Virus record (IMG/VR): IMGVR_UViG_3300031857_000054
Coordinates: 1 to 64,000 of that record
Length of the DNA: 64,000 nucleotides
Reading direction: 5' to 3' (one strand)
Source of the DNA: a virus
In this document: one piece after another, positions 4,350-36,987 of the stretch
Numbering within the stretch: position 1 is the first letter of the stretch
How the letters are laid out: each line of letters opens with the position of its first letter
The notes under the pieces: model-generated
Databases searched by the model: none
What the model saw: the letters and a program-made list of their open reading frames with translations, nothing else
Told to the model about the DNA's origin: nothing
Made by a program: the position numbers and the translations under genes

Positions 4350-5330
4350 TTAAAGCAACTTTTCTCCTATAATTCGCACACCATTGTTGAGATAATCTTG
4401 CATAGGGTAATCCCACAAATCATTCTCTAAGTGCCACTCGTATCTCTCAATAGCATCTCTGAAACCTTCATACTGACGACCGTTGTATTCTCCACCGTTC
4501 TGTCCAATATGTAGTATGGTTTTGTCTATCTCATAGATAAGAGGACTACCTGGATAGTCTTGGTTCTCTACAATAAACCTAAAGGGATGTAATGTCTTAC
4601 CACCTAATTTCTCTACTAGACCTGAAGCAATAATACCATAGGTGTAGAAAGCAGCCTGAATATCGTATCTGAACTTCCAGAACATACCTATCCAGAAGTT
4701 AGTAGGAGATGAAGTGGTCTTTAGGTCAATTGGATATACTACTCCTGTTGCCTTATCTACCACTACTAAATCTAGTAGGCCCTTACATTTATGTTTGCCG
4801 TACTCAAACTCTACCACTACTTGCTTGTGGACTTCATACCTGTCTGAGCCGTTTATCCATTCGCTCGTGAATTGATTATTCTTTAGGCTCTCTACTATGT
4901 TGTCTATCTTTGTCTTTTGGGCACTTGTAATTACTGTCTTTCCATTAGACTCTAGCAAAGCTTCATAGTAATACTTACCTTCTTTCTCAAATCGCTCACG
5001 TACTTTATCTAACTTAATCTTAAAGCCAGATCTTTCGTATGCAATTTGTTCTGCATCAGAACTATCTCTGTTAACAAACAACTGCCACACAAACACACCC
5101 ATCATAGCACCTGGCTTTTCTACATCTGTTGTATAGAATGCATCATAAAATGCGTCACTACTTTGAGTTAGTATTAAGTCAACAGCATCTCCGATGAGTG
5201 TAGTTTCTTTTGGTTCGTCTGTGTCATCCTCCGTGTTGTAGTTAATGAAGAGTTGCGGATGCACTAACAACTTCTTCAATTTGCTCTGGCTAAGAGCTGT
5301 ACTACTTAAGTATTCTTCGTTTATTATCAT
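4350..5330 (-). CDS. PD-(D/E)XK exonuclease (RecE/ExoVIII-like)
   Basis: LSQSKLK, KGLLDLV...PIDLKTT, YDIQAAFY motifs; start likely MIINEEY at 5330. Confidence 0.85.
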   Translation of the reverse strand: MIINEEYLSSTALSQSKLKKLLVHPQLFINYNTEDDTDEPKETTLIGDAVDLILTQSSDAFYDAFYTTDVEKPGAMMGVFVWQLFVNRDSSDAEQIAYERSGFKIKLDKVRERFEKEGKYYYEALLESNGKTVITSAQKTKIDNIVESLKNNQFTSEWINGSDRYEVHKQVVVEFEYGKHKCKGLLDLVVVDKATGVVYPIDLKTTSSPTNFWIGMFWKFRYDIQAAFYTYGIIASGLVEKLGGKTLHPFRFIVENQDYPGSPLIYEIDKTILHIGQNGGEYNGRQYEGFRDAIERYEWHLENDLWDYPMQDYLNNGVRIIGEKLL

Positions 5331-7235: not shown

Positions 7236-7492
7236 TAGAATTCATGAAATAGTAGTGGACCTTTAAGAGAAACTGGCTCTTGTAGGAAGATAACACCTGC
7301 CTCATTACCTTCAGGATCTCTGCTAGGGTAAAAACTTACATCATCTTCCGTCCTAAATATAATGAAAGCTTCACGCCAACCCATCTCTTTTATCTCCTCT
7401 TCGGTTGAGTAACGGATTTCTACAATCTTCTTATCCTTTAACAGTAGGTTAGCTAATTCTAGCCTTTCTACTTCATACTCTAGTCTATTCAT
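7235..7492 (-). CDS. Hypothetical protein
   Basis: 85 aa ORF with a PSRDPEGN motif. Confidence 0.65.
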   Translation of the reverse strand: MNRLEYEVERLELANLLLKDKKIVEIRYSTEEEIKEMGWREAFIIFRTEDDVSFYPSRDPEGNEAGVIFLQEPVSLKGPLLFHEF

Positions 7493-11039: not shown

Positions 11040-11111
11040 AATACAATATACAAAGGAAAAGAATAACCCAAGCTATACTCAGGTTATTCTGTTCCTAATT
11101 GTTGGTTAATT

Positions 11112-17487: not shown

Positions 17488-17527
17488 ACGTAGGGATGTT
17501 TAATGGTGTGGTAGGAAAAAGAAAAAA

Positions 17528-21193: not shown

Positions 21194-21333
21194 AGTTAAT
21201 TTCTTTAAGTTTTGTCAAGTTTTACAATTGGTTTTCTTTTCCTTTTGTTATGGGTTAATTGTGTCGAAATGGGAAAGAAAAAAGAGGACCCTTTTGGAGT
21301 CCTCTTTGTAAGTAATCGTTAATAATTAGTAGG

Positions 21334-29295: not shown

Positions 29296-29381
29296 AGTAC
29301 TATTTTTAATGTTTTAGATTACTAATATAGTATATTAAAGGGAAAAGAAAAAAAGGGAAGTACAATGACTTCCCTGTAGGT

Positions 29382-30269
29382 TTAATCAAAAGCTTTTAAT
29401 AGGAATTGCTTAAGTTCAGTTACATTGTTTAATGCAAACCTTAAGGTGTCCTTATTAGCTATAACAAAACGCATCAGTTTTCTATGATGAGTTCTAGTGT
29501 AATTAACCTCATGGAACAAGTTTACGAGTGACATAACAAAATATCTATTAGCTGCACGATCCATACGTGGCAGTTGGTTTAATATTTCGTTGATATCAGA
29601 CATCTTTTGTTCACTTGATGCTAAGTTTTTGATTCTAAACTTACCTGTTTTGATGCTGTTAGCCCCTGGAGTACCTGCTTTTAAGTCTAAACCTGCACAG
29701 ATAGCAGCAATCATGCTATACTCTAGGTCATACTTTTTCTGTAGTTCTAGTAGAGTTACGTAGTCACTGTGTATGTTTGACCAAGCTACGATGTAATCTT
29801 TCAACTGCCATGCCTTAGAAGAGGAGTTAAGCAAAGCAATTTTCTCTACCAAAGAAGGCAAAGAATCAATACAGATTTCTACAACAGGTATCTCTGTAAC
29901 TTTTAAACTCAAGAGTGCAGTGTACAAATGCTGACCATCTAAGATGTAGTAATGAGCAGTTTTTGACTTATACTTCAGCTTAACTACAACGATGGCTCTT
30001 AGATTACCCATCTTAAGCATAGACTTGCTTAATTTGTTGGCTTGTGAGGCAGCAACTTCTCTGTTTAGACTCTCAAATTGATAGAGAGGAACATCAGAAG
30101 AGATAAATTTAAGATTCTTAAGAGGATAATTGATGTCTTTACCAATCAATTGTTCATACTCTAGTTGAATCTTTTCGTCAGTTGTTAGAAACTTACTAGT
30201 TTCGGATGTGTCTAGTACCGCCTTAAGCATTTTAGCTGTATTGGCGATGTTCTCTGGAAATGTTTTCAT
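29382..30269 (-). CDS. ParB/Srx-like domain protein
   Basis: NR...LSKSM...IVV...ILDGQH...LNSSSKAW. Confidence 0.7.
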   Translation of the reverse strand: MKTFPENIANTAKMLKAVLDTSETSKFLTTDEKIQLEYEQLIGKDINYPLKNLKFISSDVPLYQFESLNREVAASQANKLSKSMLKMGNLRAIVVVKLKYKSKTAHYYILDGQHLYTALLSLKVTEIPVVEICIDSLPSLVEKIALLNSSSKAWQLKDYIVAWSNIHSDYVTLLELQKKYDLEYSMIAAICAGLDLKAGTPGANSIKTGKFRIKNLASSEQKMSDINEILNQLPRMDRAANRYFVMSLVNLFHEVNYTRTHHRKLMRFVIANKDTLRFALNNVTELKQFLLKAFD

Positions 30270-30329
30270 ATATTTTTTTTGTTAAGTTCAGTTAAAAAAA
30301 GCCTCCTGATTTCTCAAGAGGCTTCATGG

Positions 30330-30710
30330 CTAATCAATCCATCCCACAGTAGGTATTATTTCTCTAACCATACGTAGTTGCTCTATAAAGTTACAGGGTG
30401 TGAACTTGGGATACCCAAATCCCAAATCACCTGTTTCTCTATAACTAGTAGGAACAGTAGTTTTCACAGGAATTGTTACTTCCTGCTCTACTGCTAACCT
30501 ATAGGTAAGGTTAACACGTGCTTCACGCTTATCAGCCAATATGGTATCGACTGTTAAACTTCTGAACATGTCACGAACTTCCCGTGTGTGGATGAATTCA
30601 AGTTTGTCTAGTGCTTTCTTAATAGAACGCGCTTTAACTCTGAAGAAACGACTGGTATCAACTCTCTCGTAAGTTTTACCGTCAACTGTTTTAGATAATC
30701 TTTTTCTCAT
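30330..30710 (-). CDS. Hypothetical protein
   Basis: 126 aa, preceded by the cassette motif. Confidence 0.65.
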   Translation of the reverse strand: MRKRLSKTVDGKTYERVDTSRFFRVKARSIKKALDKLEFIHTREVRDMFRSLTVDTILADKREARVNLTYRLAVEQEVTIPVKTTVPTSYRETGDLGFGYPKFTPCNFIEQLRMVREIIPTVGWID

Positions 30711-30852
30711 AGGTCAGATATTAGTAGAAAGGGAAAGAAAAAATCCGACCGAAGGGAGGAATAAGAAAAGAAAATAGTCAGTCGGTTAAGACTGACTATC
30801 TATGAAAACCACATAAGACTAGACAATCCCATGTGGTTCTTCTTAATAACTA

Positions 30853-31047
30853 AAACAAACTCTCTTCTACGATTACCGTAGTTGTGGATTTTACTTATGG
30901 TTTGTTCCCCATAACCTGTTGACGTGCACATCAGAGCAGGATCCATTACAGCTATCCTTGAGTCATTAATGCTTATGGGTAGCTACTTCCCATAAGTCAA
31001 GTCTTCTTTCAATAGTGCTAACCTATATTCTGTAAGAGAGTTTGTTT
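30853..31047 (-). ncRNA. Candidate structured ncRNA (~195 nt) directly 3' of tRNA-Glu
   Basis: Perfect 14-bp closing stem AAACAAACTCTCTT/AAGAGAGTTTGTTT enclosing at least four hairpins; no ORF. Confidence 0.6.
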
Positions 31048-31121
31048 GGTAGCCCGTAGAGGAGTTGAACCTCTGTTTCTAGGATGAAATCCTATTGTCC
31101 TAACCGCTAGACGAACGGGCC
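31047..31121 (-). tRNA. tRNA-Glu(TTC) with encoded CCA
   Basis: GGCCCGTTCGTCTAGCGGTTAGGAC...ATTTCAT loop...GGTTCAACTCC...ACGGGCTACCA cloverleaf. Confidence 0.92.
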
Positions 31122-31271
31122 ATAAATGTTTCCCCTATTGCTAAGGGAAACAGATATATGAACTTCAAAAACTCTGACGCTATGAGAACATTACCAGATA
31201 ACCAGTAAAGTCAGAGTATAAAGGAAAAGAAAAAAGAAGGATTACTTAGAATCCTTCTAGTGTCTTATTAG

Positions 31272-31396
31272 TAGTCAGGACAGGAATCGAACCTGTAATT
31301 AATCTGTTTCGTTAGTGCTTTGCAGAATAACTATTCTGATTAATCCCCACCTTTCGGCTGTTATCTGGGTAGCGTTTACCATTCCGCCACCTGACT
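31272..31396 (-). ncRNA. tRNA-like RNA without a canonical anticodon loop
   Basis: Acceptor stem AGTCAGG/CCTGACT, D arm TGGCGGAATGGTAAACGC, T arm ACAGG-TTCGATT-CCTGT, ~75 nt central insert. Confidence 0.75.
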
Positions 31397-31514
31397 ATGA
31401 AAAAGTCCCACGAGCAGATCTAAGAGCGTAGCTTCTTAACGGTATGCAGGTGGGAACTTTCGGTTAAGGGATACTATCCCAAAAGGGGTTCAGCACAAAG
31501 ATAATTCTTTGTAG

Positions 31515-31787
31515 TTAATCCTGACCAACTTGCTTAGCCATAGAGTACAGCATGGCTTTTTGGAAAAGGTCCCTTAAGTCTCTGTCGCTATCTAAAGCTG
31601 CAGCTAATGTTTGTACAAGTTGACCTTTTTTTCCTTGGATAGTCGCACGAACAGATGTTTGCTCACCAAGGTCTACATAACCAATAGCAATCAATCCTTC
31701 TCTTTCACCGTTAAGGTCTAGTTGTTTAATAGTTTCAAATACACTGTCTAGTTGAAACTCTTCTGGGTTTTCATTTTGTTCTGACAT
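31515..31787 (-). CDS. Early hypothetical protein
   Basis: 90 aa; cassette motif upstream. Confidence 0.7.
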   Translation of the reverse strand: MSEQNENPEEFQLDSVFETIKQLDLNGEREGLIAIGYVDLGEQTSVRATIQGKKGQLVQTLAAALDSDRDLRDLFQKAMLYSMAKQVGQD

Positions 31788-32374
31788 AGGTTTCTAATAT
31801 TAGTAGGATAGGAAAGAAAAAAGAAAGGCCTATAAGGAAGAGATTAGTTAGCCCGTAAGATTGTATAGCCGCTTAAATTGATTAATCGCACACCATGGCT
31901 ACTGTTACCCTACTCCCCTATATAGAACAACTAACAGTAGAGAGAGAGAGAGAGTAATACCCGTAGATATAGAGAGAGGTATAGTAATGTCCTATAGAAC
32001 CGTATATAACCCTATCTGTAGTTTATCTATATTAAGTCGTTGTCAGTTATCTTAACCTAATGCAATTTAGAGTGAAGAGATAAAACTATGGGGGGATGAG
32101 TCCCCATCTCTCTAATGCATTCATTATCAATTAGTTATGAGAATCAATTCTTTGCTTTTTGCTGTAGTTTAGTGCACAAATATGCAATTCTCAGGCACTT
32201 TATTTGGTGTAAAATAGCGATAAATTGCATGAATTAGCTTCAAATAAGTGGCTTATGATTAGAACGTAAGATGTTAGAGCAGTTGCTTTTTTACTCTCTT
32301 TGGTTCCTACTGTTATTGTCTCTCTCTATATAGGGGAAAACAAAAGCACCCCGAAGGGTGCTCTTGGTTAACTG

Positions 32375-32956
32375 TTAGAAGGGAACATCGTCCGCATTCG
32401 CAGTTTCTTCTGCGGGAACATTCTCTGTAAGTGAAGAGAGGTCCGCTGTAGTACGCTGTGCGACAACCATTACTTTGTCAGCGTAGTCCTTGGTATCAGG
32501 GCGCAAGAAGCACTTACGATACACAAAGTTGCCGTGTCCGTCAGTAACACGCTGTTTGGTTTCTCTGTCCAATTTGAAGGCAGATTCACGAACAATGTAG
32601 TTACCGTTAGCGTCCTTTTCATTGATGATTTTGTAACTAACGGCTTCGTTAAAGTCAGCAGTTTCAATGATTTGGATACGCACAGCACGACCGAAAACAG
32701 ATTCCAAGTTTACAGGGCTGATGCCGTTGTCTTGGAATTTGTAGGGTTCGCTAGAAGAGGTATGCGAAATTTCGTCGGCTTTAATGCCAAAGGCTTTTTC
32801 GAATACATCCATAGAGAATGTGTGAATAGCGGTACGCAATAAACGAGATTGCAAACCGAGTGAGAAGGCGGATAGTGAGTCGGATTCTACGCCACATAGA
32901 ACGCTAACGGAACCTTTTCCGTTAACCCAAGCCGAATAAGCGTTAACTGTGCTCAT
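32375..32956 (-). CDS. Putative ssDNA-binding protein (early)
   Basis: 193 aa ending ADDVPF (SSB-type acidic tip); flanked by hairpin/motif units. Confidence 0.6.
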   Translation of the reverse strand: MSTVNAYSAWVNGKGSVSVLCGVESDSLSAFSLGLQSRLLRTAIHTFSMDVFEKAFGIKADEISHTSSSEPYKFQDNGISPVNLESVFGRAVRIQIIETADFNEAVSYKIINEKDANGNYIVRESAFKLDRETKQRVTDGHGNFVYRKCFLRPDTKDYADKVMVVAQRTTADLSSLTENVPAEETANADDVPF

Positions 32957-33324
32957 ACTGAATAGTAATTAGGCAAAAAGGAAAAGAAAAAACCCCCGTA
33001 GGGGGGATATCGGCCGTTAGGCGTAAGACCGTTAAACGCAAATGACCGAGCGAAGCGAGGTCTTATTGGCTTTGTTTAACTTTTATTTGTCTCAACACGG
33101 GGAATTTTTTGACTAGCCCTGTTTTGTTTAACTTTTTGTTTAACGTTTGGCTTACAAACTTACACAAACTTGTACCTGTTAAGCCGTAATTAGGACGTAA
33201 GATTGTAGTGTAGGCTTATCTTTTTTAGAGAAGAGGTGGTAATAGTAGGAAGGAAAAGAAAAAACGGAGGACGGTGATTAGGACTTAAGATGGTAGTGTA
33301 GGATGTCCTAGAGTACCAAAGGAG

Positions 33325-33612
33325 TCAGTCAGACTCCCTTGGATACACTATGAGACCTTTAGGTGTTAGTTCCGCTAGATCTTCCACAAAGCCGTCAACA
33401 AGTGTCTCTATTAGAGTGTACTTGTCAAAGACCATTACTAGAACTACACCGTGGTGAGTTTTAGTTGCTGTGTAGGATATGGGATGCATGTCTTTTACGA
33501 CATTACTTACGAAGGTTGAGTCATCTGATGTCATCTTCAATGAATCATTGACTTGTTGTCCACATGCTGTACAAGCCATGGACAAGAATAGGATTACGAA
33601 TAATGTTCTCAT
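33325..33612 (-). CDS. Early exported protein or lipoprotein
   Basis: MRTLFVILFLSMAC lipobox-like start. Confidence 0.7.
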   Translation of the reverse strand: MRTLFVILFLSMACTACGQQVNDSLKMTSDDSTFVSNVVKDMHPISYTATKTHHGVVLVMVFDKYTLIETLVDGFVEDLAELTPKGLIVYPRESD

Positions 33613-33650
33613 AGGATAAGAAAGAATAAACCCCCCGAAGGGGGTTATTG

Positions 33651-33998
33651 TTAGTCTTTACGTGGTCTACCCCGTTTGCCTTTAGGCTTGTCACTCTCTT
33701 CAGGTTCTACTGCTACTTCAGGTTCCACGTAATCCCAAGGCTTACCGAAGTACTCGAGATATGTTCTCTCCATTTCACGCAAGGTAGCACCGATGCTTTC
33801 TTGGTATTTGAACTGTTGAGTGAGTGTGAACTCTGACTGAAGGTTGCCGAGCATTTTAGACACGGTTCTTTCTTTGGTCAATTTGTAGAAATCTAATTGA
33901 CGTTCGATAGTGTAGCGCATTTCCATTTCTAGATTCTCTGCGTGTTTTTGAAGCATGTCGTTAATCAACGATTTAGCTTCGGGTGAGTTGGCTCTCAT
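33651..33998 (-). CDS. Early hypothetical protein with AT-hook-like tail
   Basis: Ends KGKRGRPRKD. Confidence 0.75.
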   Translation of the reverse strand: MRANSPEAKSLINDMLQKHAENLEMEMRYTIERQLDFYKLTKERTVSKMLGNLQSEFTLTQQFKYQESIGATLREMERTYLEYFGKPWDYVEPEVAVEPEESDKPKGKRGRPRKD

Positions 33999-34026
33999 AG
34001 CAGTAGGGAAAAGAAAAAAGAAGTCG

Positions 34027-34305
34027 TTAGACTTCCTTAAACTTTTTTAGTTGGTTAGTAAGAGTAGTCCATTCTATTCTTACTGTTGCCATCACCATCC
34101 TTAATGCTTTACTTTGTCTTTCGTTTCTTTCTTTCTCTTCTTGATTTAGTCCGATGAGTGGATTTTTACCTACTCTTTCCCTTCTTCTGTTTTCCACCTC
34201 AATCCTGTAAGTTTCCTTTTCTACCTTTGCTAATTGTCTACCTAACTTACCCAGAATGTCTTCCACAATCTGTAGCCGTAGTTCTAACATTATTTTTGAT
34301 TCCAT
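34027..34305 (-). CDS. Early coiled-coil protein
   Basis: 92 aa; motif 5 nt upstream of the ATG. Confidence 0.7.
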   Translation of the reverse strand: MESKIMLELRLQIVEDILGKLGRQLAKVEKETYRIEVENRRRERVGKNPLIGLNQEEKERNERQSKALRMVMATVRIEWTTLTNQLKKFKEV

Positions 34306-34327
34306 ATAATAGGAAAGAAAAAAGGTC

Positions 34328-34516
34328 TTACGACCCTTTCTCTATCAACTCACGGTATTTCCTAGCCTCATGCAGTAGATCTACTACATTGGATAGGAAC
34401 GACCGTTCAAGTCGAGCCAACGCTTTGTGTGAGTCATTCTCTGACTCATTAAGTTCTAATTGGATATCTACCACGATAGACTCCAACGCATCGAATACAT
34501 ATTCATATTTCTCCAT
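34328..34516 (-). CDS. Early hypothetical protein
   Basis: Start placed at MEKYEY (34516), just after the motif. Confidence 0.65.
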   Translation of the reverse strand: MEKYEYVFDALESIVVDIQLELNESENDSHKALARLERSFLSNVVDLLHEARKYRELIEKGS

Positions 34517-34607
34517 ACAATGAGAAAGAAAAAACTCTCTATCGTAGTTAGTTCTTAAGATTACAGTGCAGCCCAATCCAAGTTAAAAGGGGCTTTCGCC
34601 CCTGATG

Positions 34608-34727
34608 TTAGAATTTGTTGAACTCGTTGTGCCAGTAATTCTTGTTTGACTTGCTACAACTGTGACCACGACCTGATGCGCAGGACATCAGTCCCACAAT
34701 CACCACTGCTACTATTAGATATCTCAT
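34608..34727 (-). CDS. 39 aa putative lipoprotein
   Basis: MRYLIVAVVIVGLMSC...; motif upstream, hairpin downstream; not in the track. Confidence 0.6.
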   Translation of the reverse strand: MRYLIVAVVIVGLMSCASGRGHSCSKSNKNYWHNEFNKF

Positions 34728-34900
34728 ACAATAGAAAAGAAAAAACTACCCTGATATGCAGGGTAGTTGTAAGGGCGCTACCCCATGTTGTGGTCTTACG
34801 TGAACTAGCTTTACGTTCACCGCACTTTGGCAGATGAGTACATAATAGTAGGATATCCCTACTACTATAAGAAAGAAAAAAAGCCCGTGAGGGCTTTCTT

Positions 34901-35074
34901 CTAGGCTTTCTTTCGAGGCCAACTCAATAGTGCAAGTGCCCAGTAACCTAGTGCAATACATGCACTGAAGTACTGAATAGGACTACCAATAGGACACGCT
35001 GTCAAGGCAACCCATGCAGCCATCAAGCCCAATCCTATCAGGAACAAGCTTGGAATCTCTCTGTATTTACTCAT
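34901..35074 (-). CDS. 57 aa two-TM protein
   Basis: MSKYREIPSLFLIGLGLMAAWVALTA...; motif upstream; not in the track. Confidence 0.65.
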   Translation of the reverse strand: MSKYREIPSLFLIGLGLMAAWVALTACPIGSPIQYFSACIALGYWALALLSWPRKKA

Positions 35075-35101
35075 AGCACTATGAGAAAGAATAAACCGTC
35101 G

Positions 35102-35332
35102 TTAGACGGTTCTTCTTCTCTTTGTGTGTGCCATATCAATCCAGGTCAGCACTGCAATTGGCACCATCCATCCGAAGGCGAAGACCCACTCTACGACCTT
35201 GGTGAACTCTTCGCCCCAATCCGCGACCATTCCTGCTCTGAAATACACAGTCATGAAGCCACTTGCTACTACCCAAACCAAACCACTGATTGCCGCAATG
35301 GCAATCAATGTACTCTTTATTATTCTATTCAT
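35102..35332 (-). CDS. Two-TM early protein
   Basis: Start MNRIIKS at 35332, after the motif. Confidence 0.7.
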   Translation of the reverse strand: MNRIIKSTLIAIAAISGLVWVVASGFMTVYFRAGMVADWGEEFTKVVEWVFAFGWMVPIAVLTWIDMAHTKRRRTV

Positions 35333-35358
35333 AGAATAAGAAAGAAAAAACAATAGGA

Positions 35359-35541
35359 CTAATGTCCTATTGCTTTTGACTTACAATAATAGTAGGCATC
35401 CATAGCATCGGATGTTGTTTCATCCCATTCTACTCTTGTCTCTAGTTTAGGGTTCTTCTCGCAGAACTCATTGTAAGTCATTCCTTCTGTGTAGACCAAT
35501 GTCTCATCATTGTACGCTACTTGCGTGATTGTTATCTTCAT
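35359..35541 (-). CDS. Early hypothetical protein
   Basis: 60 aa; motif upstream. Confidence 0.65.
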   Translation of the reverse strand: MKITITQVAYNDETLVYTEGMTYNEFCEKNPKLETRVEWDETTSDAMDAYYYCKSKAIGH

Positions 35542-35587
35542 ACTATGGAACAGAATAAACCTGCCCCGAAGGGCAGGCTCTCTCTCT

Positions 35588-35902
35588 CTAGAACGGCAGC
35601 TCGTCGACCTCTTCTTCTCTTGCCTCGAATGGACTTGCTGCTTCTACTATCATTGGCTCGTCCTTCATCCACCCACCATCTATCCAAGTATAGTAGTAGG
35701 TAGTGTAATCCATACAGTACTCAGGCATGTGTTGGTTCTCGTCTGGATGATATACAGCATACTCTCTCCATGTCCCAACTCGCACGATGCCTCCGTGTCC
35801 TTCCACCTGAACTTCCATCCCACTGACATCAAGACCCATCTCGTTCCACGAAGTTGCCATCTCTTCCGCGACAGCAACTAACTTTTTAAATTTATCTATC
35901 AT
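35588..35902 (-). CDS. Highly acidic early protein ending VDELPF
   Basis: First cassette of the array. Confidence 0.7.
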   Translation of the reverse strand: MIDKFKKLVAVAEEMATSWNEMGLDVSGMEVQVEGHGGIVRVGTWREYAVYHPDENQHMPEYCMDYTTYYYTWIDGGWMKDEPMIVEAASPFEAREEEVDELPF

Positions 35903-36082
35903 AGCAGGATAGAACAGAATAAACTCCTCTGAAATGACGGGGGGTACCCCGACACTCTATCGGAAGATGGGGGGATCTAATCTAACATCCCCCACCCTCG
36001 TATAGACATCCTAAAATTGTGGGGGTTGAAAATTTTGGGGGTGATTTGGCTGTTGAGGTGCTTGGGACCGAAATAGGTAAGA

Positions 36083-36700
36083 TTAGTTACCAGGAACTAC
36101 ATCGTAGTAGTAGCTATCGGTATCTTCTGATACCCATCTGTCTGATTGGTTCTCTACACTTGGGTGTTCTGTGTCTACTTTTATAGCAGTAGGACTTACA
36201 GGGAAGGGTTTAGTTACCCAGTTAGAATCTTTCCAGAATATGCGGTTATTGGGCATGCATAGTAGGTATCCCTCATCTGCTACTAGTATATGCCCTGCCT
36301 TATAGTCGGAAGGCTCATCACTGTATGGGTTATTGTACCAGTCTACTGTGAACAGGTAATTGGCCCAAATCAAACTTTTGTCTTTAAGGATTACCTGGCA
36401 TCTATGCTCGCTTAGGAAATCATAATGAACTATGCTTACGTTTTCACTAAAGCAGTCCCACAGTTGTTTGAAGTGATAGGGAATGTCATTTTCAGTTTCT
36501 TTTAAGTAGAGTTCACTTATAGGTACTCTAGATCTAAGCATTCCGTAGTCTGTAATAACGTGAAAGGTAAGGATTTTACCTGCTACACTCTGTATGGCAA
36601 AGGCATATACGTTGTCGTATTCTAAATCTTCAGAGTTTTTAGTAAAGTAAGAACGTTTGACTAGAGCCTTAAAGTGTGGGATGTTGGAGTTTAGTTGCAT
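36083..36700 (-). CDS. Hypothetical protein
   Basis: Start MQLNSNIP at 36700, after TAACTTTG (36707-36714); QLWDCFS, YLFTVDW, PNNRI motifs. Confidence 0.75.
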   Translation of the reverse strand: MQLNSNIPHFKALVKRSYFTKNSEDLEYDNVYAFAIQSVAGKILTFHVITDYGMLRSRVPISELYLKETENDIPYHFKQLWDCFSENVSIVHYDFLSEHRCQVILKDKSLIWANYLFTVDWYNNPYSDEPSDYKAGHILVADEGYLLCMPNNRIFWKDSNWVTKPFPVSPTAIKVDTEHPSVENQSDRWVSEDTDSYYYDVVPGN

Positions 36701-36987
36701 TGTATACAAAGTTAGTAAATATTTATTTGGTGGATTTCTTTATAGGGTAGTTACGATGGAAGTAGAAGTGGTCTTATTTTATCGGTAAAATGCGGTTCCC
36801 TGCGGGGTTCCCTCTATCCTTAGGTGTGAATAACTTCTTCTTTCCTTTCTCTTGATTTTCTACTTACCTTTGGGGGACTACAGGGGGTTAGGGTGACATA
36901 CCAAGTAAACTGTAGTTAAATCCTTGGGTCCTACTAGTAGTTGAGTTTTCCTTATTAAGGGGTAGTGTGCCTTGTTGGTTTTACCTC

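Follow-up and report, generated by a model that had tools for sequence, protein, structure and literature searches.

A pyrimidine-rich signal, mostly adjoining a predicted terminator, separates single-gene units in the non-structural arm of a freshwater crAss-like phage

Organization of the array

The source of the sequence is a freshwater crAss-like phage with a 107-kb genome, whose host belongs to the Bacteroidota. The window, i.e., the whole stretch of DNA analysed (64,000 nucleotides, positions 1 to 64,000 of IMG/VR record IMGVR_UViG_3300031857_000054), contains an array that heads the non-structural arm of this genome and comprises 16 strong and 2 weak putative terminator/start-signal units (29334..35957, minus strand), delimited by motif, hairpin and matrix scans. 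Between the units lie 11 small ORFan genes, 3-4 non-coding stretches and one tRNA/sRNA cluster. Their common element, found in 16 strong and 2 weak copies from 29.3 to 35.9 kb, is a signal of 20 bases with the consensus T6-CTTTYCY-NTWNY-R on the minus (gene-sense) strand. The first-pass annotation had counted 18 copies in the array: 16 are strong, and the remainder consists of a weak overlapping copy (30764-30776) and a degenerate one (about 32335-32347) that falls below the matrix threshold.

All units lie on the minus strand and are described here in gene order. Unit 1 (35904..35957) has its hairpin (35932-35957) 9 nt off the signal (35904-35923), a G as fixed purine (35905) and the ATG of a 104 aa gene at 35902; it is kept in 4 IMG/VR relatives. 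At unit 2 (35540..35580), a hairpin with a UUCG loop and a stability of -19 kcal/mol (35557-35580) is followed by the signal (35540-35559), the purine of which (35541) is the A of the ATG of a 60 aa gene. The same holds for unit 3 (35331..35376; hairpin 35347-35376, signal 35331-35350, purine 35332), whose gene codes for a 76 aa membrane protein. Unit 4 (35076..35112; UAAC-loop hairpin 35093-35112, signal 35076-35095, G at 35077) precedes an ATG at 35074 (57 aa), in place of which the relative L004 carries a different gene. Unit 5 (34862..34899; hairpin 34878-34899, signal 34862-34881, purine 34863) leads about 115 nt of non-coding sequence (34746-34861) closed by the next terminator, and a homologue of this stretch lies at another place in the array of the relative L002. 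Unit 6 (34726..34768; hairpin 34744-34768, signal 34726-34745) starts a 39-aa lipoprotein-like peptide at its purine (34727 = A of ATG), and the first T of its signal is where homology with 4/4 IMG/VR relatives begins. Unit 7 (34515..34585) lacks an adjacent hairpin and consists of element X (34542-34585) and a signal (34515-34534) with its purine at 34516, the A of the ATG of a 62 aa gene; a separate terminator lies nearby (34588-34603).

Unit 8 (34304..34339; GUAA-loop hairpin 34320-34339, signal 34304-34323, purine 34305 = A of ATG) precedes a 92 aa gene, in place of which L004 carries two others. Unit 9 (34000..34038; hairpin 34017-34038, signal 34000-34019, G at 34001) is followed by an ATG at 33998 (115 aa), and unit 10 (33611..33646; UUCG-loop hairpin 33629-33646, signal 33611-33630) by a 95 aa gene whose ATG begins at the purine (33612); at unit 10, L004 carries one additional cassette flanked by two signal copies. 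Unit 11 (33245..33317), without a hairpin, combines element X (33271-33317) with a signal (33245-33264, purine 33246) that leads about 250 nt of conserved non-coding sequence (32993-33244). Unit 12 (32973..33006; UACG-loop hairpin 32993-33006, signal 32973-32992, G at 32974) opens an 18-nt leader before the ATG (32956) of a conserved 193 aa gene. The degenerate copy (32329..32363) consists of a terminator hairpin with a UUCG loop (32344-32363) and a 13-mer with 3 mismatches, and stands before a non-coding region of about 500 nt (31823-32334). Unit 13 (31803..31886), without a strong hairpin, comprises element X (31843-31886) and a signal (31803-31822, purine 31804) with a 17 nt leader and an ATG at 31787 (90 aa); L004 lacks the region between this signal and unit 14, and the junction lies within the signal. 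Unit 14 (31216..31258; hairpin 31235-31258, signal 31216-31235, purine 31217) leads an ORF-free stretch into tRNA-Glu (31047-31121) and freshwater-1 RNA (30889-30950). Unit 15 (30724..30801) has a terminator hairpin (30772-30801), the weak signal mentioned above and a full signal (30724-30743), whose purine (30725) is followed by a 15 nt leader and an ATG at 30710 (126 aa). Lastly, unit 16 (29334..29375; hairpin 29354-29375, signal 29334-29353) has a 40-nt leader, and its gene (ATG 29295), endolysin-like and 174 aa long, opens a long operon.

Three outlying copies at 21.3, 17.5 and 11.1 kb, also reported at first pass and located by their 13-mers at 21271-21283, 17515-17527 and 11055-11067, head replication operons. 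The first (21264..21307, minus strand; hairpin 21281-21307, signal 21264-21283) stands in a 140-nt gap before a 522-aa gene, the second (17508..17527, minus strand) has no hairpin and stands 27 nt before a DnaB-like helicase gene (ATG 17487), and the third (11048..11086, minus strand; hairpin 11064-11086, signal 11048-11067) precedes a NinG-like gene (ATG 11039).

Distribution and conservation of the signal

The window holds 29 matches to the 13-mer with at most one mismatch, against 3.7 expected and a maximum of 9 in 100 shuffles, and 17 of them lie on the minus strand within 29341-35923. A weight matrix trained solely on copies from relatives and run over the 107-kb genome at a threshold of at least 14 bits, the genome-wide scan proposed with the original annotation, returned 19 minus-strand sites between 11 and 36 kb (null mean 1.2) and none on the plus strand; 4 weak sites lie antisense in the late arm. 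The signal is strand-specific and restricted to the minus arm. In the 13-mer and matrix scans it was never found in front of the plus-strand late genes, which, as first described, have host TAnnTTTG promoters; their full form is TTGACw-N16-17-TAnnTTTG, their leaders are A/C-rich, and their box is different from the signal. Conversely, the host-type box is absent before all array genes, and no other candidate promoter was found there. Outside the array, a host-type box TAACTTTG (36698..36714, minus strand) stands 6 nt before the ATG of a ferredoxin-like gene.

The signal is maintained across 27 related contigs, in which the first array protein falls to 36% identity, with 183 distinct copies, a count that overstates the number of independent events because copies are partly orthologous between contigs and recombination may have homogenised those within a genome. 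It is absent from the two other genomes checked, phi14:2 and the Leptolyngbya phage Lbo-JY46. Position 7 is an invariant C (69/69 copies), and a purine stands exactly 6 nt past the 13-mer. In 72/183 copies (about 40%) the ATG begins with this purine and lies at +5, and in 44/183 (about 25%) it stands 3 nt upstream of an ATG at +8. In the remaining copies it opens a leader of 15-23 nt or else a stretch of non-coding RNA or tRNA: the ATG is 20-28 nt away in 27/183 copies and absent in 24/183. The longer leaders are A/U-rich, and Shine-Dalgarno sequences are absent from the units. A pyrimidine-purine step occurs at +5/+6 in 88 of the 111 copies with an ATG elsewhere than +5, against a background of 23% (p about 1e-35).

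The close spacing first noticed between 33.6 and 35.9 kb holds for 9 of 10 copies, with the ATG 5 or 8 nt past the 13-mer. Likewise, the copies that had been seen before non-coding stretches (33252, 31223 and the degenerate 32335) are joined by one at 34869, which agrees with the view that the signals are unit boundaries and not merely ribosome signals. In several genomes signals lead non-coding stretches and a tRNA cluster while the downstream sequence varies, for which a translation signal is an inadequate explanation; a ribosome signal does not fit the pattern of the copies.

Hairpins and termination

A GC hairpin with a stem reaching into the T-tract adjoins 136/183 copies (about 74%), relatives included, and the hairpin-less 26% keep the entire signal with its T-tract. 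In the array, 12 of 17 copies adjoin a hairpin (dG -9 to -19 kcal/mol), in keeping with the original observation that most copies follow one; the sense-strand loops, TTCG, TACG and TAAC, complement the GAA, GTA and GTTA loops noted on the other strand. Terminator-like sites are enriched between 28.5 and 37.5 kb (32 against 5.9 expected), and strong hairpins followed by T6 stand between nearly every gene pair of the array. The stems (5-12 bp) and loops (3-8 nt) have no conserved bases, the hairpins are centred about 30 nt upstream of the fixed purine, and wobble pairs (6 G.T against 0 A.C) favour the sense strand. Judged by its form, the hairpin with its T-tract is an intrinsic terminator of the preceding unit.

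Cassette exchange between relatives

The cassette maps of related phages vary in gene content and order. Between this phage and L004, 8 of 12 homology boundaries fall inside a unit (BLAST; p 5.5e-7), and the same is true in 6 of 7 contig pairs (p<0.002), many of the boundaries coinciding with the first T of the signal. The proposal that breakpoints coincide with the motif was thus borne out when checked; since BLAST boundaries necessarily end where the conserved signal abuts a replaced gene, they are evidence that cassettes are replaced at the signal and not of the mechanism of recombination. Within this limit, the alignments show that related phages swap genes at the signal. As the signal is the sole sequence common to unrelated cassettes, recombination between its copies would insert, delete or replace single promoter-gene-terminator cassettes.

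A probable joint between transcription units

Each copy of the signal probably joins two transcription units of one gene each and acts as terminator, start signal and recombination site, a reading to which we assign a probability of about 0.55. According to this model, the GC hairpin and the following T-tract would end the upstream unit as an intrinsic terminator, and the T-tract would double as the first third of the 20-base signal. The terminator and promoter roles, originally offered as alternatives, are then likely not exclusive, given that the pyrimidine signal shares its T-tract with the terminator; of these options, near-leaderless messages and a terminator-like hairpin are supported, and an N4-type promoter hairpin on the template strand is not. 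The signal itself is probably a compact phage-specific promoter, with the pyrimidine block at about -18 to -6 and the fixed purine as the start point. Where the start codon begins at the purine the mRNA would be leaderless, and in other units the purine would begin an A/U-rich leader, a non-coding RNA or a pre-tRNA; near-leaderless mRNAs, as first suggested, are probable from the spacing in 116/183 copies. Because serial strong terminators coexist with the lack of any host-type box, the downstream genes would be transcript-starved unless transcription re-initiated at each unit. Moreover, the array units match the geometry of the leaderless host-type promoter of the phage (36714-36698: 8-mer box, 6 nt, A(+1) of ATG), but their box differs. 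We know of no characterised precedent for a pyrimidine-only promoter.

The reader of the signal would most likely be the crAss-type RNA polymerase of the phage, which is the least certain step of the model. The candidate, a giant protein of 2498 aa, is a crAss-type two-barrel enzyme and contains GGDYDIDKL (a DYDID motif), which aligns with GSDFDIDKL in a giant protein from Crassvirales; searches of the minus arm turned up neither a sigma factor nor a second polymerase.

Among the other explanations, an RNA signal within read-through polycistronic transcripts, preceded by a terminator or attenuator, is unlikely, though several features speak for it. The U/C-rich stretch could be an unstructured pyrimidine platform that loads ribosomes (S1-type) in a host without Shine-Dalgarno pairing, or an endonuclease could cut the pyrimidine-purine step and free hairpin-protected mRNAs, a kind of intergenic processing with a precedent in T7 early mRNAs. 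An ATG 5 or 8 nt past the signal in 116/183 copies would suit such a role, as would the resemblance of the hairpins, with their UUCG and UAAC loops and wobble bias, to RNA structures of the sense strand and the purine at -3 of the ATG in the +8 class, for which a Kozak-like -3 preference reported for Bacteroidota could account. However, the 51/183 copies with an ATG 20-28 nt off or absent retain the signal and the fixed step, copies also precede non-coding RNA and tRNA stretches, and the late genes of the same phage have very different A/C-rich leaders. In addition, reading through up to 16 serial strong terminators would leave little RNA, the hairpins are shorter than RNase III needs, and the invariant C at position 7 suggests specific recognition and not a generic U-rich platform.

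It is improbable that the entire 20-mer serves the phage polymerase as a sequence-specific terminator with an optional hairpin, which would imply that promoters are few or located elsewhere. The T-tract at the start of the signal, mostly after a hairpin, and the conserved motif at 7 termination sites of a related two-barrel virion polymerase fit this idea, but it leaves unexplained both the exact +5 or +8 position of the ATG and the fixed +6 purine where the ATG is elsewhere; hairpin-less copies, moreover, stand right before genes that follow non-coding stretches, and the array genes have no other candidate promoter.

Quite improbable is a set of operators through which a phage or host regulator jointly shuts off early genes, as T4 RegA does on early translation start regions. 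Many copies overlap start codons and are highly uniform, as such sites might be; non-coding units, however, carry the signal too, no candidate regulator was identified, and a promoter per unit would still be required, so that this would be an added role at most.

An N4-type promoter, in which the injected polymerase would recognise a hairpin extruded from the template strand and the pyrimidine tract would space it from the start, is very improbable: the distance from hairpin base to fixed purine is a constant 19 nt or so in 74% of copies, and the template-strand loops would be GAA, GTA, GTTA or GTGA, which form stable DNA loops through a G..A pair and are of the type found in N4 promoters, but stems and loops are unconserved and variable in length, 26% of copies have none, the centre lies about 30 nt and not 11 nt before the purine, wobble positions favour the sense strand, stems extend into the T-tract in terminator fashion, and the candidate polymerase is not T7-like.

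Comparison with known systems

Promoter-early stem-loops (PeSLs) of T4-type phages are small composite terminator/promoter elements among ORFan genes of a plastic region (PMC2839356, PMC4122927); their stem-loop likewise insulates adjacent units, and the insertion, deletion and replacement junctions of close relatives lie inside the elements. Given the homology breakpoints on the signal, the units described here behave like PeSL cassettes. PeSLs, however, have a host sigma-70 consensus (-35/-10), a Shine-Dalgarno leader and a stem-loop of variable position, whereas this array, from a crAss-like phage of a Bacteroidota host, has a pyrimidine 20-mer unlike the host box, a hairpin that is always 5' where present, usually leaderless genes and no Shine-Dalgarno sequence. 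Similarly, in bacterial promoter-coupled terminators, the start site lies about 10 bp past the termination site (bioRxiv 10.64898/2026.08.19.745784), and the hairpin and T-tract overlap the next promoter, with the T-tract just upstream of a -10-like element. Those promoters, from cellular genomes, are of the sigma-70 type and have a normal -10 hexamer, whereas here CTTTYCY follows the T-tract in a dense phage array.

For the virion two-barrel polymerase of Thermus phage P23-45, which belongs to the family including the crAss enzyme, conserved motifs occur upstream of 14 start sites, at the pre-early promoters, and at 7 termination sites (bioRxiv 10.1101/2022.12.01.518664). Both phages have a much-repeated phage-specific motif, but that of P23-45 is AT-rich and experimentally mapped, and the present one is unrelated to it, deduced from sequence and fused to hairpin terminators. 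In N4, three early promoters (P1-P3) have a conserved template-strand hairpin with a 3-nt loop centred at -11 and are read by a T7-like enzyme (PMC4496689); a small hairpin is associated with injected-polymerase promoters there, whereas the hairpins here are variable, dispensable, farther upstream and terminator-like. In phi14:2, the replication-gene arm is transcribed early by the injected polymerase, and no common upstream motif was found for the early transcripts (bioRxiv 10.1101/2020.03.07.982082). In both phages the replication arm occupies one strand and the structural genes, under host-type promoters, the opposite strand; non-coding RNAs abound close to where the early arm begins, and the polymerase is of the injected DFDID type; by analogy of position, the array would belong to the early genes. 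phi14:2 has A-rich leaders and no such shared motif, whereas the present lineage has an obvious and dense signal, a candidate, open to testing, for the start signal used by the RNA polymerase that crAss-like phages inject.

A repeated signal in the minus-strand array

The small ORFan genes between 29.3 and 35.9 kb on the minus strand are separated by 16 strong and 2 weak units, in which a hairpin is usually followed by a 20-base signal, T6-CTTTYCY-NTWNY-R. Its first 13 bases (T6-CTTTYCY) occur 29 times in the window with at most one mismatch, against 3.7 expected, and the factual statements of the first-pass annotation on this array all hold. Read in the gene sense, the anatomy of the copies is constant: usually a GC hairpin, then T6, CTTTYCY, and seven more constrained positions (N-T-W-N-Y-R-Y). 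In a set of 69 copies taken from five genomes, position 7 is always C, a T stands two bases past the 13-mer in 67, and a purine six bases past it, hereafter the fixed purine, in 64. A weight matrix trained only on the copies of the relatives finds, over the whole genome, 19 minus-strand sites at 11-36 kb and none on the plus strand, with a null mean of 1.2. Four weak matches (14-17 bits; genome positions 68897-68916, 78051-78070, 86858-86877 and 97674-97693, minus strand) lie antisense to late genes where about one is expected on both strands, and they could be due to chance or mark antisense starts. At 11055-11095, two signal copies on opposite strands face each other as the arms of one palindrome, and the plus-strand copy has no gene to serve.

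The array pattern is confirmed, and it extends to a whole freshwater lineage. The signal was found neither in phi14:2 nor in Leptolyngbya phage Lbo-JY46, the nearest named relative by terminase, both of which have A-rich leaders, and it is therefore lineage-specific. It is also absent from the other phages that share the ferredoxin-like gene, and a scan of IMG/VR with the 20-mer pattern gave scattered single matches among the matches listed. In Lbo-JY46, the same T6-A6-7-rich 28-mer precedes two genes (5235-5262 and 7281-7308) and ends at the ATG; it may be that phage's own start signal. The array proteins match no Pfam or PHROG family, and a megablast of the region against GenBank phages gives no match.

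The hairpins as probable terminators

The region contains 32 terminator-like sites against 5.9 expected, five times the frequency in shuffled sequence. A hairpin of -7 kcal/mol or better stands directly before the signal in 136 of 183 copies (74%), compared with 16% at random positions; the other 47, about a quarter, lack an adjoining hairpin and keep the T-tract and all downstream signal positions. The GC-rich stems follow stop codons, pairing usually continues into the T-tract, and hairpin and T-tract together have the sequence makeup of an intrinsic (factor-independent) terminator. The hairpin sequences are wholly different between units and even between orthologous positions, because each hairpin travels with its upstream gene.

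As for the strand on which the hairpins act, a strand-neutral search for non-Watson-Crick positions able to pair on one strand returned six G.T pairs in the sense strand and none in the other. Sense-strand loops are frequently TTCG (25), TAAC (16) or TCAC (7), and their reverse complements are never seen. On the sense strand, these loops fit stable RNA families (UNCG, UMAC); since the complementary sequences make stable loops in DNA, loop type by itself does not settle which strand folds. Folding energies favour the sense strand (39:11) only with the T-tract included; they are equal on both strands when it is left out, and the evidence for sense-strand RNA structures is thus moderate, not strong. 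Combined with the T-tract, it constitutes the signature of intrinsic termination, and the hairpins are best read, on the features of their sequence, as terminators.

One of the readings first proposed, that the hairpins are N4-type promoters, is not supported: in the conserved hairpin of an N4 promoter, the 3-nt loop is centred at -11 and the bases of both stem and loop are conserved (PMC4496689), whereas the loops here are mostly of 4-6 nt, the stems are unconserved and the hairpin centre lies about 30 nt before the fixed purine. Such a promoter should moreover make the hairpin indispensable, yet the hairpin-less copies keep the signal, and it needs a T7-like single-subunit enzyme, whereas the candidate here carries the DxDxD motif of two-barrel enzymes, which aligns to a giant protein from Crassvirales.

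The pyrimidine signal as a candidate promoter

The pyrimidine signal is an element separate from the hairpin, as the hairpin-less copies indicate from one side and, from the other, terminators at other genome positions that have a T-tract and no CTTTYCY (minus strand, 30299; plus strand, 62972 and 66736). Nor is it a translation signal only: in the set of 183 distinct copies, drawn from 27 contigs, no ATG occurs within 32 nt of 24 copies, and for another 27 the ATG is at a distance of 20-28 nt. The fixed purine is the A of the start codon in 72 of the 183, and when the ATG lies elsewhere than at +5 from the 13-mer, a pyrimidine-purine step is still present at +5/+6 in 88 of 111 copies, against a background of 23%. 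The most distant lineage usually has its ATG at +8 while keeping the step at +5/+6. Because the step persists regardless of the position of the ATG, a single nucleotide at constant spacing from the pyrimidine block stands out independently of the sequence after it, and the simplest reading is that the fixed purine would be the point where transcription starts. Numbered from that point, the pyrimidine block would span about -18 to -6, with the hairpin extending upstream from about -19. Examples of the predicted start positions are window 35541, 35332, 34727, 34516, 34305 and 33612, all on the minus strand.

The arrangement of the array points the same way. As many as 16 strong terminators follow one another and none of the array genes has a host-type box before it, so the distal genes need start signals of their own, and the pyrimidine signal is the one conserved sequence that could serve. 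A control within the phage is the ferredoxin-like gene immediately upstream of the array, which has a host-type box, six bases and then the ATG (36714-36698), that is, the same box-N6-A(+1) layout as the units with a different box. Reading the six bases before the purine as a sigma-70-like -10 element (TAnnnT) is rejected, since fewer than half the copies have its A and such a hexamer would be too near the ATG. Metagenome contig ends, examined as possible transcript ends, gave no consistent pattern. Taken as a pattern of sequence, the 20-mer is slightly better than evenly favoured to be a compact phage-specific promoter with a fixed start, which would produce leaderless mRNAs or mRNAs with a 3-nt leader.

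Non-coding stretches and further repeats

Copies of the signal also head non-coding stretches in the window, including a run into tRNA-Glu and a freshwater-1 RNA. The latter (RF02979, 30889-30950, minus strand), whose 79.7 bits exceed the gathering score, comes shortly after tRNA-Glu, within unit 14. Unit 11 heads a conserved non-coding stretch of about 250 nt (32993-33244, minus strand), whose core (33040-33150) is more conserved in four genomes than the adjoining genes and contains three direct copies of an A-rich 11-12-mer (AGTTAAACAAA), possibly origin iterons or a protein-binding RNA. Between unit 5 and the next terminator, about 115 nt on the minus strand (34746-34861) hold two internal hairpins and no ORF; a homologue stands elsewhere in the array of one relative (L002), which makes this stretch a candidate small RNA carried as a cassette. 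A further 500 nt or so of non-coding sequence, partly conserved in relatives, follows the gene for a 193-aa protein (31823-32334, minus strand) and includes a (GA)n run near 31940-31955; long non-coding RNAs are likewise abundant in phi14:2, close to where its early arm begins. Rfam holds no family for the signal or for the long non-coding stretches. A tRNA-like gene (31272-31396, minus strand; 41 bits against the Rfam tRNA model, missed by ARAGORN) has an insertion of about 50 nt and is preceded by a host-type TAnnTTTG box (31496-31503), not by the array signal.

Another family of repeats, element X (core ..ACTAC.ATCTTA.G...CTAA..), occurs in six minus-strand copies in the window, at 33271-33317, 33183-33227, 34542-34585, 31843-31886, 33010-33041 and 32254-32294, and weaker copies in relatives. 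Three copies are directly upstream of hairpin-less signal copies and two lie in non-coding stretches, and the element may serve as an upstream promoter element or a protein site, or may belong to the small RNAs. Lastly, the 160 nt before the first unit (35924-36082, minus strand) contain C5-6 and G5 runs and could fold into three GC hairpins in a row. In relatives, 7 of 19 whole metagenome contigs start inside the equivalent stretch, which could reflect either an assembly break at the homopolymers or, next to the array, a physical end of the genome or the edge of a terminal repeat.

Cassette exchange at the units

An array-gene backbone is common to the window and four IMG/VR relatives, and content and order vary among the five genomes through single-gene insertions, deletions, replacements and order changes. 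The breakpoints agree with the suggestion that the units may be recombination points: 8 of 12 homology boundaries with the closest relative (L004) fall inside a unit (p 5.5e-7), and boundaries are also enriched in units in 6 of 7 further contig pairs (p<0.002). Specifically, identity with this relative starts with the leading T of the signal at 34745 and 34019, one extra cassette of the relative is placed at 33618-33630, between two signal copies, and it lacks 31238-31813 (a 90-aa gene and the tRNA-like gene), with the junction inside a hybrid signal. Replacement thus happens at the signal, in a pattern that may come from homologous recombination over about 20 bp or from selection for intact units.

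To judge from this breakpoint pattern, the units are very probably the exchange points of a system like the PeSL elements of T4-type phages, for which cassette shuffling through regulatory repeats was first described (PMC2839356, PMC4122927). In both systems, a terminator or attenuator stem-loop, here predicted from sequence, lies inside the intergenic element, the elements occupy a plastic region, mostly upstream of ORFans, and the indel and replacement junctions of close relatives fall within them. Conversely, the PeSL promoter has the host primary-sigma consensus and a Shine-Dalgarno leader, whereas the array units have neither TTGACw...TAnnTTTG, nor sigma-70-like -35/-10 elements, nor such a leader.

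A candidate polymerase for the signal

The source is a single contig of 107,017 bp, of which the window is the first 64 kb, and its terminase, portal and major head protein each match PHROG families. The best tblastn match of the terminase is Leptolyngbya phage Lbo-JY46 (38%), followed by many Crassvirales (about 28%). Non-structural genes (PolA, DnaB-like helicase, ThyX, dCMP deaminase, UDG, NinG and others) occupy 1-36.7 kb on the minus strand, and structural genes run from 37 kb onward on the plus strand. The same two-arm layout is found in phi14:2, whose replication-gene arm is early and transcribed by an injected rifampicin-resistant polymerase (bioRxiv 10.1101/2020.03.07.982082). Within the minus arm, the product of 5486-5881 matches PF18909, the N-terminal domain of dATP/dGTP diphosphohydrolase (1e-28); enzymes of this type go with non-standard purines in some phage genomes, and dCMP deaminase, ThyX and UDG-family genes are nearby.

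Three giant proteins (2284, 2498 and 2299 aa) are encoded at 82.8-104.1 kb and match nothing in PHROGs or in PDB sequence searches. The middle one (2498 aa; genome 89707-97203) carries GGDYDIDKL, which aligns to GSDFDIDKL in a giant protein encoded by crAss phage cr60_1 (tblastn, E 1e-24 for the pair), and 95 Crassvirales records match this stretch. Its assignment as a polymerase is based on the DxDxD motif and tblastn, DFDID being the catalytic motif of the phi14:2 virion polymerase (bioRxiv 10.1101/2020.03.07.982082).

The signal differs from the host-type promoter. TTGACw-N16-17-TAnnTTTG precedes the late genes and a few minus-strand genes and resembles the middle and late promoters of phi14:2 and its relatives, which are read by the host enzyme (bioRxiv 10.1101/2020.03.07.982082). 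The units do not carry the Bacteroidota primary-sigma box (-33 TTG / -7 TAnnTTTG, about 7 nt before the start): the 8-mer in its place is TTCTTTCC-like, and no copy has the A of position 2 or the G of position 8. Because the signal is unlike the host box, and a Pfam search of the minus arm found no sigma factor and no second polymerase, the giant protein with the DYDID motif is the remaining candidate reader. For a related virion two-barrel enzyme, that of phage P23-45, a conserved motif lies upstream of 14 mapped starts and another at 7 termination sites (bioRxiv 10.1101/2022.12.01.518664), and the literature searched defines no promoter for the virion polymerase of any crAss-like phage. By exclusion and by this analogy, the signal can be tentatively assigned to a crAss-type virion polymerase.

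Joined together, these elements suggest a full reading, to which a probability of roughly 0.35 is given, in which the signal is a virion-polymerase promoter. The enzyme would start at the fixed purine, yielding leaderless early mRNAs and small RNAs, and would stop at the hairpin and T-tract of each unit, a few bases short of the following start. Throughout early expression, stopping and starting would then be coupled from one single-gene cassette to the next, and the cassettes would be exchanged through the promoter itself.

Implications for crAss-like phages

The signal bears on how crAss-like phages begin their infection programme: for phi14:2, whose early genes are transcribed by the injected polymerase, no promoter could be defined (bioRxiv 10.1101/2020.03.07.982082). 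The present lineage supplies a short, invariant and densely repeated signal with a predicted start nucleotide, which lends itself to simple tests. Cassette shuffling of the T4 type through regulatory repeats also operates in Crassvirales, with a quite different signal, and shuffling via this signal would explain the turnover of their ORFan-rich early regions. Bacteroidota ribosomes do not use Shine-Dalgarno pairing, and leaderless mRNAs, if true, would represent a second mode of translation start in Bacteroidota phages.
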